A DNA stretch of 28,483 nucleotides from Chloroflexota bacterium (lineage in GTDB: Bacteria > Chloroflexota > Anaerolineae > Anaerolineales > Villigracilaceae), in contig JBFYSM010000198.1 in the NCBI GenBank assembly GCA_041301605.1, positions 1-28,483 of the forward strand, in the 5' to 3' direction. The stretch's first letter is position 1. Every line of letters starts with the position of its first letter. Shown in pieces: positions 2,084 through 22,719 of the stretch. The notes under the pieces are model-generated. The model had not been told where the DNA came from, ran no database searches, and saw nothing but the letters and a program-made list of their open reading frames with translations. Made by a program: the position numbers and the translations under genes.

Positions 2084-3127
2084 ATGGGCACTCCACGAAC
2101 GAGAAAAACGAATACCCAGAAGAACCCGACCATCAAGGATGTTTCCCGCCTGGCAGGAGTCTCCACCGCCACGGTCTCGCGCGTCCTGGCCGGATTCGAG
2201 GAGGTCAGCGAGGATACCCGCGGGCGGGTCCTGGAGGCTGTCAGCACGCTCAACTACCAGCCGAACCGCAATGCCCGCAACCTGCGCAAGAGCACAACCA
2301 GCAAGATCGGCGTGGTGATCTCCGATATCCAAAACCCCTTCTTTAGCAGTGTTGTCCGTGGCATCGAGAAGGTAACCCTGGTGGATGACTTTACGATCTT
2401 CCTCGGGAACTCCGACGAAGACCCCCAGCAGGAGCGGAAGCTGATCAGCATGCTGTTGGAAGAGGCCGTGGCCGGGCTCATCATCGCACCCACCCATGGC
2501 GATGCCGGGCATTACCAATTCCTTTTCAACTCGAGTACTCCGGTTGTCATCATCGACCGCCGGTTGCCCAAAGTGGATCTCGATATGGTGCTCGTCAACG
2601 GGTATGCAGGGGCTCAGAAGGCCATAGATTACCTGGCTGGCCTGGGGCACAAACGGATTGGCTTCGTGGGGGGGCTGAAACATCTATCGGTGATGAGTGA
2701 ACGCGAGCGGGGATATATCGATGCATTGAAAAGGAATGACCTCCTCATTTCCGAAATCTATTTACGTTACGGGGATAACCGCCAGGATGGAGGATACCGG
2801 GCCATGCAAGAACTACTATCACTGGAACAGCCCCCCAGCGCGGTCCTGATCGCCAATAACCTGATGACCCTGGGCGGACTGCAGGCGATCCACGAAGCCG
2901 GGTTGGAGATCCCGGAGCATATTTCCCTGGTCGGGTTCGACGACATGGATTGGGCACCCTCCCTCCGCCCGCCCCTGACGGTGGTGGCTCAGCCGGCCTA
3001 CGAAATGGGCGAGACTGCCGTCTCCATGCTCCTGGACCGCATCCGCAATCCCGAGCAGGCTCACCAGGTTGTTGTTCTCGATACCCGCTTGATCGTCAGG
3101 GCTTCGTGCCGTGACCTGCAAAAATAA
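2084..3127 (+). CDS. LacI-family transcriptional regulator
   Basis: TIKDVSRLAGVSTATVSRVL HTH, YQPNRNARNL hinge, sugar-binding domain with SLVGFDD. Confidence 0.95.
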   Translation: MGTPRTRKTNTQKNPTIKDVSRLAGVSTATVSRVLAGFEEVSEDTRGRVLEAVSTLNYQPNRNARNLRKSTTSKIGVVISDIQNPFFSSVVRGIEKVTLVDDFTIFLGNSDEDPQQERKLISMLLEEAVAGLIIAPTHGDAGHYQFLFNSSTPVVIIDRRLPKVDLDMVLVNGYAGAQKAIDYLAGLGHKRIGFVGGLKHLSVMSERERGYIDALKRNDLLISEIYLRYGDNRQDGGYRAMQELLSLEQPPSAVLIANNLMTLGGLQAIHEAGLEIPEHISLVGFDDMDWAPSLRPPLTVVAQPAYEMGETAVSMLLDRIRNPEQAHQVVVLDTRLIVRASCRDLQK

Positions 3128-3141
3128 TCACAGGAGTTACC

Positions 3142-19323: not shown

Positions 19324-20341
19324 TTTGTTTTCCCCATTGCCGCGTGCCGAGGTAGTCAAAGCAGTCGAAAGGAAGTATCCCTGTCGCATCCCGTTGGTGA
19401 TGGCAAAATGGTGGGGGGAAGGTTTCGAGTCGCTGCACGGTTTGGCGCTGAAACAGTTCGACAAATATCCCGAAGATGTTGTCATGGCCTTGATCGAGCC
19501 ATTCGATTACTCCAGAATGTCGCTGCCATGGGAAGTTGACCTCAAGGGCGCATATGACACGCGCTGCGTGCTCAATGATTGGGCCAAACTAGATGACTTC
19601 ATCTCCTGCCTGCCAAACCCGGCAGAGGATCCTCAGTTTGAATGGGCAAAGGAGATGGAAGCAAAGGCACATGCCGAAGACCGGTATTTTATTTTCGGGT
19701 GGTGGCGCTTATTCTTTGAACGTCCCTGGGAAATACGCGGCATGTTGAACCTGTTGAAAGATTTCGTCACATACCCGGAACAGGTACATACACTATACGA
19801 CGCTTTGCGCGAGACCTATCTGGCCTATCTGCGCCGCGCCTTGAGCGAATTCCAGTTTGACGGTTTCTGGACCAGCGATGACCTGGGACATCAGAGACAA
19901 TTATTCATGAGTCCCAAAACCTTCCGGATTTTCTTGAAACCTCGCTATGAACGCATTGGCGCCTTTCTGCACGAACACGGCATCCACTGGTGGTTGCACA
20001 GTTGCGGTAACAACACCCTGATCATGGGCGATTTATCAGAAACAGGGGTGAACGTTTTCCACCCCGTGCAAAAGCACACCATGGATGAGCGTGCGGTTGC
20101 TTCTCAATACGGCGAACGCATCTCTTTTCTCGCCGGCTTCGATGTCCAGCAAACCTTGCGCACCGCCTCTCCAGAAGAAGTGCGCGCCGAGGTCCGTTTC
20201 TTGATCGATACCTTCGACCGGCCCGATGGTGGCATGTGCCTGGCAGCCGGGAACGGTATCCTGCCTGGAACACCGTTGGAAAATGTGGACGCATTTTTCG
20301 ATGAAGCTTTAATTTACGGAGTAAAGAAGAGAAACCGATGA
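19316..20341 (+). CDS. Uroporphyrinogen decarboxylase / MtaA-CmuA family protein
   Basis: SDDLG.Q..LFMSP, WLHSCG, HPVQ, GFDVQ..L, EEVRAEV, LPGTPLENV motifs; start 19307 or 19316. Confidence 0.85.
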   Translation: MNDLFSPLPRAEVVKAVERKYPCRIPLVMAKWWGEGFESLHGLALKQFDKYPEDVVMALIEPFDYSRMSLPWEVDLKGAYDTRCVLNDWAKLDDFISCLPNPAEDPQFEWAKEMEAKAHAEDRYFIFGWWRLFFERPWEIRGMLNLLKDFVTYPEQVHTLYDALRETYLAYLRRALSEFQFDGFWTSDDLGHQRQLFMSPKTFRIFLKPRYERIGAFLHEHGIHWWLHSCGNNTLIMGDLSETGVNVFHPVQKHTMDERAVASQYGERISFLAGFDVQQTLRTASPEEVRAEVRFLIDTFDRPDGGMCLAAGNGILPGTPLENVDAFFDEALIYGVKKRNR

Positions 20342-22719
20342 AAACAGACTATTCCCGCCTAGACACTGCCAGCAGAAAAGATGACCGCTGGCTCATCCTC
20401 GGATCGGGAGGCGGCGGCTGCGTCCACACGCTGACCGTCAACCCGCACCGCCCCGCTACGATGGTTGTCTCGTGCGATATGACCGCCGGGTACATCACCC
20501 ACAACGGTGGAAAATCGTGGCGCGAATTCAATTTAAAAAGCCGCCAATACGCTTACGCCTTCGACCCCCATGATCCCGACACGCTCTGGGTGGGCACGAG
20601 TGGACTTTTCCGCTCGCGGGATAACGGCTCCACCTGGCAGCTCGTCTTTCCCAACCCCGCCAAACTCAAGGGCGAGACCCGCCTGGGCGACGAATGCCGC
20701 CACAGTTTCATCCCCGGCGATAACTGGCCCGGCAGGAACATCCACGCCATCACCGTGGACCCAGTCCGCGACGGGCAGGTTTTCATCGGCATCAAGAAGA
20801 TGGGGCCGCCGGAGCCTTTCGATTTCCAGCGGCCGGTCGAGCGCGAAGGCATCCTCGTATATGCGACCGAGGATGACGGGCTGACCTGGCGCGAGGCGGC
20901 TGAACTCGACGCGGTGGACATCTACCTGATCGTTATTGACCCGGCCTCACCGGTCGAAGCGCGCCGCCTGCTCGTTTTCACCGAGAAATCGATCTTCCGC
21001 GTGGATACTGCCGCGGGCGCGGCCTCCCCGCTCCCCCTGCCGGAGAACGTGCGGTTCCTGAACCATGCCGCCGCCGCAGTGAACCCGGAGAACGGGGATA
21101 CGGTCTTCTACCTGGACGCCTTCGTGGAACTCCCCGGTTCGCAGGCGGGTTCCACCATCCTGCGCTCGCGCGACCTGGGCCAAACCTGGGATGACCTTGC
21201 CCCGGGGATCGCTGCCCTCCACCCCGCTGGACAGCCCTGGATCACGCAGATCTCTGCCTGCGGCGCTGACGCCCGCAGTGTGTGGACCGTCCTCGAGCGC
21301 TTCCCCGACCGGGAAACGGACGGCTCCCCCATCGACCGCTACGGCATCCTGCACAGCACAGACTCCGGTCAGACCTGGCGCTGGGTGGTCAGGCATGACG
21401 ATTTCCACGACCCCGATAACCGCGAGTTCGGCTGGGCGGAGCGCGATTACGGCGCGAAATGGGGCGACCTGACCGGCGACCACCAGATCAGTCCCAAAGG
21501 CCGCTTCTGCTGGGACGTGGTTGCCAGCCCCGTGGATCCGGATACCTGCTACACCATGGATTTCTCGACGATCTATGCAACCCATGATGGCGGTCAAACC
21601 TGGCAGCAACTGGTTACCAACCTTCATGCGGATGGGTCGGCTTCTTCACGCGGCATCGATGTGCTCGGTGTGTACGGCGTGATCTTCGACCCCTTCAACC
21701 CGCAGCACATCGCCCTCCCCGTCACCGACGCGGGCATCTTCCATTCGCTTAACAGCGGGCGCACCTGGTGGCATGACCTGCAAGGCGTGCCCCGCGAATG
21801 GATCAACACCTGCTACTGGATGGTCTTCGACCCCGAAGTAAAAGGACGCGCCTGGTCGGCCTGGTCGGCCATGCACGACATCCCGCGTCTGAAGATGTTC
21901 CGCGAGGAATTCTTCGCCCGCGACCGGGGCGGAATCTGCAGGTCGGATGACGGCCTGCAATCCTGGTCTCCAAGTGCAAAAGGATTACCGGAACACGCCC
22001 TCTGCACCCATCTCGTGCTCGACCCCGCCAGCCCTGCTGGGCGGCGTACGCTCTATGCGGCGGTCTTCAATGGCGGCGTCTACAAATCCACTGACGATGG
22101 CGCAACCTGGACGCGCAGGAGCAACGGCATCGACCCGCGCAACCTCTTCGCCTGGCGGCTGGCCCTGCTCCCGGATGGGATGTTATACCTGGTGGTTGTC
22201 AAGAACCGTCTCTTGGGGCGAGAATGTACCGGTGCGGTCTACAAATCCACCAACAGCGCCGAAACATGGGAACCGGTGTCCCTGCCTGTGGGCGTGGATT
22301 TCCCCAACGACCTGACCTTCGATCCCTCAGGGCGGCTCTATCTTTCCTGCTGGCCGCGGAGCGATGGAGACAGGAATATAGCCGGCGGCGCGTACGCCAG
22401 CGATGACGGCGGCCGGACCTGGGATCCGGTTTTCGACCCGGCAGCGCACGTTTACACCGTCACCGTCGATCCGGCCAATCAGTCTGTGCTTTACCTGTCC
22501 ACCTTCGATGCTGCCCTGTACCGTTCCATCGACCGCGGCCGAACCTGGAAGCCGCTGGCGGGATTCGATTTCCAATGGGGCTACCGCCCGGTCCCCGACC
22601 CGCACCACCCCGGCATGCTCTACCTGACCACTTTTGGCAGTTCGGTCTGGTATGGCCCGGCGGAGGGGGTGGATGATGCCACCGAAAACATCAATGATAC
22701 TTGTCTTTTTATGGGATAA
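20338..22719 (+). CDS. BNR/Asp-box repeat double beta-propeller protein (GH74/sialidase-like fold)
   Basis: Many SxDxGxTW boxes (SRDNGSTW, SRDLGQTW, STDSGQTW, STDDGATW, SDDGGRTW, SIDRGRTW); no signal peptide. Confidence 0.82.
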   Translation: MKTDYSRLDTASRKDDRWLILGSGGGGCVHTLTVNPHRPATMVVSCDMTAGYITHNGGKSWREFNLKSRQYAYAFDPHDPDTLWVGTSGLFRSRDNGSTWQLVFPNPAKLKGETRLGDECRHSFIPGDNWPGRNIHAITVDPVRDGQVFIGIKKMGPPEPFDFQRPVEREGILVYATEDDGLTWREAAELDAVDIYLIVIDPASPVEARRLLVFTEKSIFRVDTAAGAASPLPLPENVRFLNHAAAAVNPENGDTVFYLDAFVELPGSQAGSTILRSRDLGQTWDDLAPGIAALHPAGQPWITQISACGADARSVWTVLERFPDRETDGSPIDRYGILHSTDSGQTWRWVVRHDDFHDPDNREFGWAERDYGAKWGDLTGDHQISPKGRFCWDVVASPVDPDTCYTMDFSTIYATHDGGQTWQQLVTNLHADGSASSRGIDVLGVYGVIFDPFNPQHIALPVTDAGIFHSLNSGRTWWHDLQGVPREWINTCYWMVFDPEVKGRAWSAWSAMHDIPRLKMFREEFFARDRGGICRSDDGLQSWSPSAKGLPEHALCTHLVLDPASPAGRRTLYAAVFNGGVYKSTDDGATWTRRSNGIDPRNLFAWRLALLPDGMLYLVVVKNRLLGRECTGAVYKSTNSAETWEPVSLPVGVDFPNDLTFDPSGRLYLSCWPRSDGDRNIAGGAYASDDGGRTWDPVFDPAAHVYTVTVDPANQSVLYLSTFDAALYRSIDRGRTWKPLAGFDFQWGYRPVPDPHHPGMLYLTTFGSSVWYGPAEGVDDATENINDTCLFMG

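Follow-up and report, generated by a model that had tools for sequence, protein, structure and literature searches.

A cluster of 15 genes carried by an uncultured member of the Anaerolineae probably forms a LacI-controlled operon, which would import D-Araf oligosaccharides and catabolize them in the cytoplasm to D-ribulose-5-phosphate. The main support for this reading comes from five components homologous to the D-arabinan locus of Microbacterium arabinogalactanolyticum, among them a GH116 of the ExoMA2 type followed directly by its isomerase.

Organization of the locus

The genes extend from position 2084 (the ATG of the LacI gene) to 22719 (the stop codon of the last gene) of the window, the whole stretch of 28,483 nucleotides that was analysed, and are preceded by candidate control elements:

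1990..2018, + strand: sigma-70-like promoter upstream of LacI, TTGACT-17-TATTAT with a TG extension
2018..2044, no strand: a pair of adjoining operator-like palindromes of LacI type, TGTAAACGATTACA and AGTAAACGATTACA
2084..3127, + strand: LacI-family repressor (Pfam LacI HTH and Peripla_BP_3)
3142..4311, + strand: GH172a of the alphaFFase1 type, putative exo-alpha-D-arabinofuranosidase with possible alpha-D-Fruf activity (DUF2961, E 2.7e-70)
4315..5526, + strand: predicted cytoplasmic family VIII carboxylesterase, beta-lactamase fold (Pfam Beta-lactamase, 5e-60)
5699..6862, + strand: GH172b, paralogue of GH172a (DUF2961, 2e-69; ORF extendable to a TTG at 5627)
6855..7982, + strand: divergent Amidohydro_2 TIM-barrel metal hydrolase (Pfam PF04909, 1.6e-17)
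8109..8834, + strand: 241-aa protein with six predicted TM segments (ATGA overlap, translational coupling to the SBP)
8831..10513, + strand: lipoprotein SBP of a CUT1-type sugar ABC importer (N-terminal signal, LLLAAC lipobox)
10724..11626, + strand: ABC permease 1 (BPD_transp_1; ORF extendable to 10532; 300 aa in the JGI and NCBI gene calls)
11642..12526, + strand: ABC permease 2 (BPD_transp_1)
12537..15056, + strand: GH116, ExoMA2 type, putative exo-beta-D-arabinofuranosidase (Pfam GH116 N-terminal domain 1e-35, catalytic domain 2e-48)
15053..16648, + strand: FucI/AraA-fold aldose-ketose isomerase, putative D-arabinose isomerase (ATGA overlap with GH116)
16779..18287, + strand: FGGY pentulose kinase, putative D-ribulokinase (Pfam FGGY_N and FGGY_C)
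18280..19323, + strand: URO-D/MtaA-like protein 1 (Pfam URO-D, 4.9e-11; JGI calls a gene at the same coordinates)
19307..20341, + strand: URO-D/MtaA-like protein 2 (Pfam URO-D, 1.5e-20)
20338..22719, + strand: predicted cytoplasmic GH74-like tandem beta-propeller of 793 aa, putative glycosidase (Pfam BNR/Sortilin-Vps10)

The initial annotation had described two GH172 enzymes, a GH116, an ABC importer, an isomerase and an FGGY kinase as co-oriented, often overlapping genes of a probable Chloroflexota genome. Pfam and fold searches place these families where it had put them, all 15 genes lie on the + strand, and overlaps are of the ATGA type (membrane protein/SBP, GH116/isomerase, URO-D-like protein 2/propeller) or longer (FGGY kinase/URO-D-like protein 1 and the two URO-D-like genes). 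The Chloroflexota origin is confirmed as well: the closest loci belong to MAGs of Anaerolineae/Anaerolineales (70-81% identity), and the exact GH116 is found in NCBI MAG GCA_041301635.1 and in two JGI metagenomes. Six genes, however, had gone unlisted: the esterase, Amidohydro_2, the 241-aa membrane protein, both URO-D-like proteins and the propeller.

At the head of the cluster there is one promoter-like site with tandem LacI-type operator-like sites. The former has the top score between 1800 and 21000, with 10 of 12 positions matching, as a match to the consensus only. The operator-like motif occurs five times at three mismatches or fewer (0.86 expected), a count reached in none of 100 shuffles, and TGTAAACGTTTACA is also present upstream of the orthologous LacI gene of another Anaerolineae locus (L014). 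The best reading of these elements is an operon under LacI control.

By a hydrophobicity heuristic, the SBP is the only product with a signal peptide and lipobox, and none was found on GH172a, GH172b, GH116, the esterase or the propeller, so that the SBP is predicted to be the sole exported product and the hydrolases to be cytoplasmic, as had been proposed. SBP counterparts in the same position of the transporter modules of two relatives (L328 and L329) carry SBP_bac_1, and the membrane protein, for which profile searches gave no family match, is kept ahead of the SBP in relatives with this transporter. The locus contains no ATPase gene for the importer.

Comparison with the Microbacterium D-arabinan locus

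The characterised M. arabinogalactanolyticum locus (L165), which is induced by D-arabinose (PMC10509167), has the order GH183, GH183, SDR, ExoMA1, LacI, FGGY kinase, ExoMA2, isomerase, and shares with the window the succession of GH116 and isomerase. Over 529 aa, the isomerase of the window has 60% identity to the product of the gene that comes immediately after ExoMA2, and identities to the other counterparts are 46% (kinase), 36% (LacI) and 30-32% (GH172), with isomerase, kinase and LacI aligned over their full length. Of 80 Microbacteriaceae loci, 65-75 have LacI, GH172, FGGY kinase, GH116 and isomerase together within 10 kb (isomerase kept next to the ExoMA2 homologue in 75, kinase in 65), and their co-location is therefore not due to chance. 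Whereas L165 encodes two GH183 enzymes, the Anaerolineae operon has none and carries six accessory genes to which the known pathway assigns no role; its SBP is unrelated to that of Microbacterium, with no homologue in any of the 80 loci. In other phyla, most ExoMA2-type GH116 genes and most isomerase genes are unlinked to each other within 10 kb. These differences weigh against the D-Araf reading. The absence of a GH183 endo-arabinanase, already noticed in the initial annotation, holds for the window and extends to the syntenic relatives.

Glycoside hydrolases

The GH116 aligns with ExoMA2 (PDB 8IC6) at 8e-121, while glucosylceramidases reach at best 4.5e-9 and beta-glucosidases about 1e-5; by alignment it groups with ExoMA2, not with the beta-glucosidases, and it is assigned here to subfamily 4, as defined around ExoMA2 by Shimokawa et al. 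Its identity to ExoMA2, the sole characterised enzyme of this type, is 33%. Equivalents of ExoMA2 E431, D557, R483 and H446 are conserved in the alignment. The enzyme keeps both catalytic residues (nucleophile and acid/base) as well as the two residues that recognise O2 of Araf, having Arg/His at the positions where TxGH116 has His507/Asp452.

The two GH172 proteins are 78.5% identical to each other and far nearer to alphaFFase1 (47% for GH172a, 46% for GH172b; GH172a against 7V1V, 4e-98) than to ExoMA1 (3e-29 for GH172a) or Dg79, their identity to D-arabinan-active GH172s being about 30%. The catalytic Glu pair (WWGEG / GTGSED in GH172a) is intact in both, and both have Gly at the G299 site. 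In ExoMA1, Asn253 blocks fructofuranose, and in alphaFFase1 G299 allows the C1 hydroxymethyl group of Fruf to fit; this enzyme, a difructose-dianhydride I hydrolase and the closest characterised GH172, also cleaves pNP-alpha-D-Araf (kcat 127 s-1). The expected pair of GH172 enzymes is thus present, but as an alphaFFase1 type with Gly at the ExoMA1 Asn253 site, for which alpha-D-Fruf activity is possible.

These same features (identity to alphaFFase1, retention of Gly) would fit the use of difructose dianhydride I or other alpha-D-fructofuranosides, which arise from inulin or by caramelisation, as in Bifidobacterium dentium, with the GH172s acting in the manner of alphaFFase1. We regard this as improbable for the operon as a whole: family searches found in the window neither a GH32 beta-fructofuranosidase, the partner of alphaFFase1 in B. 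dentium, nor a PfkB/ROK fructokinase, an aldose-ketose isomerase and an FGGY pentulose kinase would be pointless for fructose, and the GH116 is of the ExoMA2 type. In other phyla, moreover, Gly-type GH172 genes adjoin MR_MLE dehydratases and GFO/IDH/MocA oxidoreductases, which are aldose oxidation enzymes, in 16-18 of 60 loci. In favour of D-Araf, several lineages have Gly-type GH172 at the same locus as ExoMA2-type GH116, and in one Anaerolineae locus (L007) the GH116-isomerase pair stands alongside an Asn-type (ExoMA1-like) GH172.

Isomerase and kinase

The label fucose-isomerase-like stands at the level of fold. The Pfam Fucose_iso_C score (27.4 bits) is under the cut-off (29.3), and fold searching was needed: with the AF2 model (pLDDT 81.7), the top 41 Foldseek matches comprise only isomerases of L-fucose, D-arabinose or L-arabinose. 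The protein is, from sequence and model, not a canonical FucI but a member of a separate FucI/AraA-fold family. It has no sequence-level match to solved FucI structures and only about 15% identity in the fold alignment. No biochemically characterised member of the family was found among solved structures, NCBIfam or the literature searched, and the Microbacterium paper also terms it putative. For the kinase, the nearest NCBIfam model is the xylulokinase XylB, with a score below the curated cut-off, and the closest PDB entry (3IFR) has no assigned specificity.

Pfam names (GH116 as "beta-glucosidase 2", Fucose_iso_C) and the proximity of the kinase to XylB could suggest a generic beta-glucoside/xyloside or L-fucose-type locus, with a GH116 beta-glucosidase or xylosidase, an L-fucose isomerase and a xylulo- or fuculokinase. 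This is already disfavoured, and we hold it to be very unlikely, by the distance of the GH116 from beta-glucosidases and its Arg/His pair, by the divergence of the isomerase from FucI and the sub-threshold XylB score, and by the absence of a fuculose-phosphate aldolase and of any class II aldolase from the window.

Accessory enzymes and the nature of the substrate

The best PDB matches of the esterase are themselves esterases (7PP3 at 5e-78, EstU1 4IVI, Est-Y29). Amidohydro_2, without a PDB match at sequence level, probably starts near 7005-7062 (306 aa in the JGI call) and lies after GH172b in every syntenic locus showing that position, and in L329. The URO-D-like proteins have no detectable mutual similarity; the first is conserved in L008 and L025, and the second scores far below the NCBIfam MtaA/CmuA cut-off and matches MtaA (4AY7) at 9e-7. 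For the propeller (AF2 pLDDT 93), GH74 enzymes account for every one of the top 24 Foldseek matches (E from 1e-26 to 1e-19; TM mostly 0.6-0.7, 13-18% identity), with no GH74 match at sequence level.

The GH116-isomerase pair recurs in five Anaerolineae loci (L006, L007, L008, L011 and L014). The six accessory genes are conserved in Anaerolineae and occur in none of the 80 Microbacteriaceae loci, and relatives insert GH35, ADP-ribosylglycohydrolase domains and BD-FAE esterases; together with the GH38 of L329, these hint at a decorated heteroglycan. The same chemistry could accordingly serve a substrate other than mycobacterial AG/LAM, an acylated mixed furanoside heteroglycan, from a different and perhaps widespread environmental source. 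Candidates would be D-Araf glycans like the pilin or O-antigen arabinans (known non-mycolata examples are listed in PMC10941961) or a novel polymer, with the accessory enzymes setting the real specificity, and two or three modules of separate ancestry may have been joined in the locus. In L329, the transporter is accompanied by GH38, two GH172, Amidohydro_2, an esterase and a fusion of LacI with ADPRH, while GH116 and isomerase are both absent within 10 kb; L328 has the transporter together with Amidohydro_2 and esterase but no GH172. Each of three families, the ExoMA2-type GH116, the Gly-type GH172 and the isomerase, is spread at 56-70% identity over Acidobacteriota, Latescibacterota, Planctomycetota, Bathyarchaeia and further groups, and this breadth points to a substrate that is common. 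Against this, the sequence names no alternative substrate, the esterases and GH38 might be accounted for by AG/LAM itself, through its mannose caps and its succinyl or mycolyl esters, and the sole experimentally anchored homologues act on AG/LAM. We consider such a substrate possible but rather unlikely.

Proposed pathway

For the D-Araf operon favoured here, whose substrate specificities, kinase product, regulator effector and environmental source we infer, the SBP and the two permeases would import oligosaccharides freed by another agent, energized by an ATPase encoded elsewhere. In the cytoplasm, the GH172 paralogues would remove alpha-linked D-Araf and the GH116 beta-linked D-Araf caps; the isomerase would convert D-arabinose to D-ribulose, and the kinase would phosphorylate it for entry into the pentose phosphate pathway; as an aldolase is lacking, the most likely product is D-ribulose-5-phosphate. 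The esterase would probably strip acyl groups from the imported oligosaccharide, and Amidohydro_2, the URO-D-like proteins and the propeller may handle further decorations or linkages. The route from import to ribulose phosphate had been proposed earlier and is supported by the L165 homology and the ExoMA2-like GH116; its interpretation as scavenging of mycolata walls is not established, and mycolata necromass stands as one tentative candidate source. Since the locus encodes neither an endo-enzyme nor a secreted hydrolase, the cell would be unable to attack the polymer and restricted to oligosaccharides released by others. The operon core matches a recently characterised bacterial system for using D-arabinan, an unusual polysaccharide found in the walls of mycobacteria, in an Anaerolineae version without the polymer-cutting enzyme and with several extra accessory enzymes.

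Gene organization and genomic context

The segment between positions 2084 and 22719 contains 15 genes, every one of them on the + strand:

2084-3127, +, LacI
3142-4311, +, GH172a
4315-5526, +, beta-lactamase-fold serine hydrolase (family VIII carboxylesterase)
5699-6862, +, GH172b
6855-7982, +, Amidohydro_2 protein (true start probably near 7005-7062)
8109-8834, +, 241-aa protein with six TM segments
8831-10513, +, 560-aa lipoprotein SBP
10724-11626 and 11642-12526, +, two BPD_transp_1 permeases
12537-15056, +, GH116
15053-16648, +, 531-aa isomerase
16779-18287, +, FGGY kinase
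18280-19323 and 19307-20341, +, two URO-D-like proteins (1 and 2)
20338-22719, +, 793-aa BNR/Sortilin protein (propeller)

All the genes named in the initial annotation are present here, co-oriented and partly overlapping; another six had been left unmentioned. Start/stop overlaps of the ATGA type are found between the membrane protein and the SBP, GH116 and the isomerase, and the second URO-D-like protein and the propeller, while longer overlaps join the FGGY kinase to the first URO-D-like gene and the latter to the second. The SBP is the only protein of the locus with a signal peptide and a lipobox, and a simple hydrophobicity test detected no N-terminal signal in the locus hydrolases. The best promoter-like site of the region, a consensus match, lies at 1990-2018, and directly 3' of it, at 2018-2044, two LacI-type palindromes abut each other, TGTAAACGATTACA and AGTAAACGATTACA. 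Operator-like palindromes gave five matches at ≤3 mismatches (0.86 expected), and a nearly identical palindrome precedes the orthologous LacI gene in L014 (L-numbers denote the homologous loci fetched for comparison). An inverted repeat, CACTTGCA-N7-TGCAAGTG, lies around 5625-5650 in the 172 nt that separate the esterase and GH172b genes (5527-5698); it could be a hairpin or a relic of the GH172a/GH172b duplication.

The G+C content is ~57% from 2 kb onward, and a stretch of lower G+C (0.49 vs about 0.57) lies upstream of the locus. This upstream region encodes a ParE-toxin-like ORF (404-736) that overlaps a Phd/YefM antitoxin ORF (733-1041), the toxin gene being first, and a DUF4256 protein (1367-1912, E 3e-93). 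Downstream are found an OmpR-type response regulator (22866-23549), a HAMP histidine kinase (23960-25114), an HNH endonuclease (25626-26237), a DeoR regulator (26482-27258) and a second Amidohydro_2 protein (27297-28334), which shares 29% identity with the first. In L008, from Anaerolineaceae JTS-AC169, the gene orthologous to this second Amidohydro_2 (78%) comes almost directly after that of the propeller, with a BD-FAE esterase between them, and for this reason the two-component/HNH/DeoR block of the window looks inserted or rearranged. Rfam and tRNA scans of the window gave no matches.

The host had been considered a probable member of the Chloroflexota, and this proved correct: an identical GH116 protein is present in the NCBI MAG GCA_041301635.1, as well as on contigs of two JGI metagenomes and a Logan assembly, and the closest species-representative loci (70-81% identity) belong to Anaerolineae MAGs of the Anaerolineales and Anaerolineaceae. 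L008 is syntenic across nearly the whole cluster, to which it adds a stand-alone ADP-ribosylglycohydrolase inside the operon and the BD-FAE esterase; L006, L010, L011 and L025 keep most of it, with a GH35 gene inserted between permease 2 and GH116 in L010.

GH116 and the Microbacterium D-arabinan locus

When compared with all solved structures (phmmer), the window GH116 matched ExoMA2, the GH116 exo-enzyme of Microbacterium (8IC6/8IC7), with an E value of 8e-121; the next best structure was a glucosylceramidase (4.5e-9), and TxGH116-type beta-glucosidases followed at ~1e-5. ExoMA2 uses Glu431 as nucleophile and Asp557 as acid/base, and Arg483 and His446 (His507 and Asp452 in TxGH116) set recognition of the Araf O2 apart from that of glucose (PMC10509167). 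The equivalents of all four residues are identical in the window protein once a +4 offset in chain numbering is allowed for, and lie in the motifs GWEGCF, NTYDIEF, NFRAS and CTHVW. The earlier proposal that this is a D-arabinan-type enzyme and not simply a beta-glucosidase is thus upheld at the level of sequence, and the locus contains a GH116 of the ExoMA2 type that is found in D-arabinan utilisation loci. Because it groups with ExoMA2, the protein was placed in subfamily 4, the clade around ExoMA2 of predicted exo-beta-D-arabinofuranosidases, exemplified by Thermobaculum terrenum (Shimokawa et al., PMC10509167).

A fragment of ExoMA2 used as query retrieved the locus of M. arabinogalactanolyticum JCM 9171 (L165, 100% match) and 79 others, mostly from Microbacteriaceae. 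L165, with the gene order GH183, GH183, SDR, ExoMA1 (GH172), LacI, FGGY kinase, ExoMA2 and isomerase, is the published D-arabinan PUL (Shimokawa et al. 2023, PMC10509167), which is inducible by D-arabinose. By tblastn, the window isomerase shares 60% identity over 529 aa with the product of the gene immediately 3' of ExoMA2, and the remaining counterparts are the FGGY kinase (46%, 503 aa), LacI (36%, 319 aa), GH116 (33%, 874 aa) and GH172a/b (30-32%, 333 aa). The isomerase is present in 75 of these 80 loci and the kinase in 65. The order GH116-isomerase is common to L165 and the window, and is therefore conserved across Actinomycetota and Chloroflexota; their window copies are coupled in translation. 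No conserved neighbourhood was found around GH116 homologues outside Anaerolineae.

Both systems also share cytoplasmic exo-enzymes and a binding-protein-dependent importer, although the window SBP is unrelated to that of Microbacterium. Besides belonging to another phylum, the window locus differs in lacking the SDR and in the extra esterase, Amidohydro_2, membrane, URO-D-like (two) and GH74-like propeller proteins. Its GH172 is duplicated and of the alphaFFase1 type, with Gly at the specificity site, whereas Microbacteriaceae have the ExoMA1 type, with Asn (72/72).

The isomerase and the FGGY kinase

The isomerase had been described as fucose-isomerase-like, which is true of its fold and not of its family. 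Its match to Fucose_iso_C is below threshold (27.4 vs 29.3 bits), so it does not show the three significant domains (Fucose_iso_N1, N2 and C) of L-fucose isomerases proper, and neither NCBIfam models nor PDB sequences (E<1) matched it. From an alignment of 35 sequences an AlphaFold2 model was obtained (pLDDT 81.7, pTM 0.86), and its best 41 PDB matches were exclusively L-fucose, Bacillus pallidus D-arabinose (3A9R) and L-arabinose isomerases, with E values from 3e-18 to 5e-11 and ~11-15% identity. Since the fold is shared and the sequence match is absent, the modelled protein is best described as a distinct family within the FucI/AraA fold. The locus thus combines, as D-arabinan utilisation loci do, a FucI-like isomerase, confirmed here by its modelled fold, and an FGGY kinase beside the exo-enzymes. 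The closest PDB entry to this kinase has no assigned specificity.

The isomerase family comprises more than 8000 homologues, mostly annotated as hypothetical proteins, and is unusually well conserved, with members 64-82% identical to the window protein in Acidobacteriota, Micromonospora, Meiothermus, Hymenobacter, Planctomycetota and Bathyarchaeia. Within 10 kb on either side of 80 homologues, neighbours of the window type were an FGGY kinase in 14, LacI in 13, GH172 in 9 and GH116 in 6. Like all neighbourhood counts given here, these are based on simple ORF calling and tblastn within 10 kb on each side, with spurious antisense ORFs in high-GC loci. Acidobacteriota homologues (among L085-L164) adjoin other recurrent, unannotated families and not glycosidases.

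In E. coli K-12, D-arabinose is metabolised via FucI and then FucK/FucA, and E. coli B uses a D-ribulokinase. The route proposed here resembles the enterobacterial one in that a FucI-fold enzyme would convert D-arabinose to D-ribulose before an FGGY kinase acts, but the window isomerase belongs to a separate family, with ~15% identity to FucI and no N-terminal Fucose_iso match. No aldolase is encoded in the window, and the route therefore presumably proceeds via D-ribulose-5-phosphate.

The GH172 pair

GH172a and GH172b share 78.5% identity, and the best solved relative of both (46-47% identity) is alphaFFase1, the GH172 of Bifidobacterium dentium that synthesises and hydrolyses difructose dianhydride I (DFA I).

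E values of GH172a / GH172b against reference GH172 proteins
alphaFFase1: 4e-98 / 8e-96
BACUNI_00161: 2e-49 / 7e-45
Dysgonomonas gadei Dg79 (8AH3): 7e-41 / 3e-37
ExoMA1 (8IC8): 3e-29 / 2e-30

Both proteins match the double jelly-roll domain DUF2961 (237 and 234 bits) and preserve the two catalytic Glu residues, 21 positions apart (WWGEG and GTGSED), with Gly at +7, equivalent to Gly299 of alphaFFase1, and so show all the features of the alphaFFase1 clade. Gly299 leaves space for the C1 hydroxymethyl group of fructofuranose, and ExoMA1 blocks the same space with Asn253 (PMC10509167). Both are candidate exo-alpha-D-arabinofuranosidases, as in the initial reading, with the Glu pair intact and a specificity site of the alphaFFase1 and not the ExoMA1 type.

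This likeness raises the alternative that the locus serves DFA I or other alpha-D-fructofuranosides, since alphaFFase1, the closest characterised GH172, shares both the Glu pair and Gly299 with the window enzymes. In B. dentium, however, its partner is a GH32 beta-fructofuranosidase, in a cluster without GH116, isomerase or FGGY kinase (Kashima et al.; PMC10941961), whereas the window has no GH32, PfkB/ROK kinase or aldolase, and an aldose-ketose isomerase followed by an FGGY kinase would be useless for fructose. The alphaFFase1 enzyme itself has alpha-D-arabinofuranosidase activity, with a Km of 2.7 mM and a kcat of 127 s-1 on pNP-alpha-D-Araf, in addition to its activity on alpha-D-Fruf.

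A motif scan over the fetched loci found Gly at this site in the Anaerolineae syntenic loci, and Asn, Asp, Cys or Gly in GH172s of other lineages placed beside GH116 or the isomerase; Dg79 and BACUNI_00161 have Cys. The GH116-isomerase pair of L007 (76% and 82% identity to that of the window) is accompanied by an Asn-type GH172, and a Victivallales locus (L264) contains Asn-type and Gly-type enzymes side by side, with GH116. Given this survey and the Araf activity of alphaFFase1, a Gly-type enzyme fits a D-Araf context without proving Araf specificity. The neighbours of Gly-type GH172s (60-70% identity) in 60 loci of other phyla include MR_MLE dehydratases (18), GFO/IDH/MocA proteins (16) and PhyH dioxygenases (25), together with SDRs and sulfatases. 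MR_MLE and GFO/IDH/MocA proteins being aldose-oxidation enzymes, an aldose product fits better than fructose, and a fructoside-utilising role for the window locus is considered highly improbable. In Latescibacterota and other phyla an MR_MLE dehydratase gene lies directly 5' of a Gly-type GH172 (L277, 8773-11134; L285, 8707-11134), and in loci of this kind the sugar released may be metabolised by an oxidative, non-phosphorylative route.

Absence of a GH183 endo-enzyme

GH183 (DUF4185) endo-D-arabinanases were searched for by tblastn with two Pfam-verified DUF4185 proteins from L165 and with an HMM built from homologues of one of them. Neither method detected any in the window, as had been noted from the start, and consequently the window lacks the signal-peptide GH183 that is characteristic of D-arabinan utilisation loci. 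The family was also absent from all 80 GH116-homologue loci, including every Anaerolineae syntenic one, in contrast to its presence in 63 of the 80 Microbacteriaceae loci. As the window encodes neither a GH183 nor a secreted hydrolase, the organism would be limited to oligosaccharides that it has not released itself, whether these come from other organisms, from phages or from the autolysins of the producers.

Among 80 isomerase loci, a GH183-like gene was found in one, L148, from an Acidobacteriaceae MAG (JBAUHD010000106.1); this is the only non-actinobacterial locus fetched that has such a gene (43% over 353 aa). The isomerase, an FGGY kinase and a GH172 whose specificity-site residue is Asp are also encoded there, and the locus is a candidate for a full D-arabinan locus in Acidobacteriota. 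Some homologues of the propeller protein show faint precomputed matches to PF13810 (DUF4185/GH183) alongside BNR/Sortilin-type families, most likely due to cross-talk among related propeller families.

PUL42 of D. gadei (Al-Jourani et al. 2023, PMC10115798; Ross et al. 2026 preprint) resembles the window locus in having GH172 paralogues (DgGH172a-c), a putative GH116 and an abundant 'fucose isomerase'. Dg79 (DgGH172c) is a hexameric, alphaFFase1-like enzyme active on the mycobacterial arabinan glycans AG and LAM, and differs from the window GH172s (E ~1e-37 to 1e-41) in having Cys instead of Gly at the Gly299 site. PUL42 also differs in its Sus-type outer-membrane system, its secreted/periplasmic enzymes and its GH183.

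Accessory genes and modular composition

The accessory genes, together with the 6-TM protein and the SBP, were found in Anaerolineae loci only (0/80 Microbacteriaceae loci). The serine hydrolase has as its best PDB matches 7PP3 (5e-78), EstU1 and Est-Y29 and is, judged by these matches, a family VIII carboxylesterase. A beta-lactamase assignment for 4315-5526 was rejected: the NCBIfam beta-lactamase models reached 20-40 bits against cut-offs of 415-887, and the protein thus stays below the curated cut-offs of class C beta-lactamases/PBPs. The Amidohydro_2 protein has no solved relative by sequence, and its homologues are named only 'TIM-barrel metal-dependent hydrolase'. Proteins of ~240 aa without a family match precede the large SBP in the window (8109-8834), L008 (5536-6261), L328 (15537-16247) and L329 (13667-14386); the window copy, with six predicted TM segments, overlaps the SBP gene by ATGA and could serve as an additional subunit of the transporter or as a sensor.

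The two URO-D-like proteins show a weak likeness to MtaA-type methyltransferases and none to each other, and no corrinoid protein gene is found near them. Protein 2 has an H-S-C motif and a later Cys (GGMCLAAG) that recalls the MtaA-type Zn site, and protein 1 has H-C-C without the later Cys. The model of the 793-aa protein (pLDDT 93) had GH74 enzymes as all of its best 24 structural matches (E 1e-26 to 1e-19, mostly TM 0.6-0.7), although no GH74 match was obtained by sequence; it is thus predicted to be a cytoplasmic GH74-like tandem propeller. Photosystem II assembly factor and sialidase, considered for 20338-22719, were ruled out by this fold. Asp47 and Asp464 are retained by all of 55 homologues, and their positions recall the GH74 Asp pair; these homologues occur in mixed glycan loci (GH5, PGM/GHMP kinase, AXE1) that do not indicate a specificity. 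Literature searches on GH172 with URO-D and on D-arabinofuranosidases in Chloroflexota returned nothing relevant.

The locus L329 contains GH38, two GH172s, Amidohydro_2, a BD-FAE esterase, a LacI-ADP-ribosylglycohydrolase fusion, the 6-TM protein, SBP and permeases, with neither GH116 nor isomerase within 10 kb, and L328 has the same transporter/Amidohydro_2/esterase module without GH172. Given such variants among its relatives, the window cluster has the appearance of two or more fused modules, one with transporter, GH172, esterase and amidohydrolase and another with GH116, isomerase and kinase, followed by the URO-D/propeller tail. A LacI HTH-ADP-ribosylglycohydrolase fusion of ~525-565 aa heads the transporter module in L328 (13942-15534), L329 (12026-13603) and L009 (5317-7011), and would be a regulator with a sensor of (ribo/arabino)furanoside-hydrolase fold.

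Proposed pathway and implications

The account that we favour, and hold to be probable, is the import and cytoplasmic catabolism of D-Araf oligosaccharides to D-ribulose-5-phosphate, a scheme in which we infer all specificities, the kinase product, the LacI effector and the ecological source. What the computations show directly are the family and subfamily placements, the conserved residues, the homology to L165, the synteny and the lack of GH183. LacI would repress from the tandem operators until a substrate-derived effector appears, and the SBP and permeases would bring in D-Araf-containing oligosaccharides, to be deacylated by the esterase. GH172a and GH172b would take off alpha-linked residues and GH116 beta-linked D-Araf; the isomerase would then yield D-ribulose and the FGGY kinase D-ribulose-5-phosphate, which would enter the pentose phosphate pathway.

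The cell wall of mycolata may be the main natural source, although we regard this only as a tentative possibility. The esterases and additional glycosidases are suggestive of a heteroglycan bearing acyl groups, which is compatible with succinylated, mannose-capped AG/LAM fragments. A broader proposal, which seems rather unlikely, is that the Anaerolineae locus is not merely a cut-down mycobacterial-arabinan system and is dedicated to an acylated D-Araf heteroglycan common in soils and sediments. The accessory proteins (GH74-like propeller, two URO-D/MtaA-like proteins, Amidohydro_2, esterase and SBP-coupled 6-TM protein) would then carry out new furanoside-processing reactions, and the isomerase family would reflect a widespread but overlooked D-arabinose economy.

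The degradation of D-arabinan was worked out only in 2023, solely in Actinomycetota and Bacteroidota, so that this type of system is already known, and Shimokawa et al. noted an ExoMA2-type GH116 in a Chloroflexota-affiliated organism. What is new here is a complete operonic catabolic core in Anaerolineae, in which the architecture is exo-only, the Gly-type GH172 is duplicated, the transporter is unrelated and a set of accessory enzymes is conserved. To a specialist the locus would come as no great surprise, yet it offers well-defined targets. Among them are the putative D-arabinose isomerase family, for which literature searches returned no characterised member and no structure was found; the Gly-type GH172s, whose Araf/Fruf preference would refine the specificity rule of the family; and several accessory enzymes, including the GH74-like protein. 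New exo-D-arabinofuranosidases would also be useful for the analysis of mycobacterial cell-wall glycans.

The same core is tightly operonic in uncultured Anaerolineae, and each of its parts (ExoMA2-type GH116, GH172 and isomerase) is widespread in environmental phyla. This points to D-arabinofuranosides, from actinobacterial necromass or elsewhere, as a broadly exploited carbon source, and to exo-only 'cheater' or scavenger strategies. Taken with the comparative data, the locus suggests that D-arabinofuranoside turnover reaches well past Actinomycetota and Bacteroidota.
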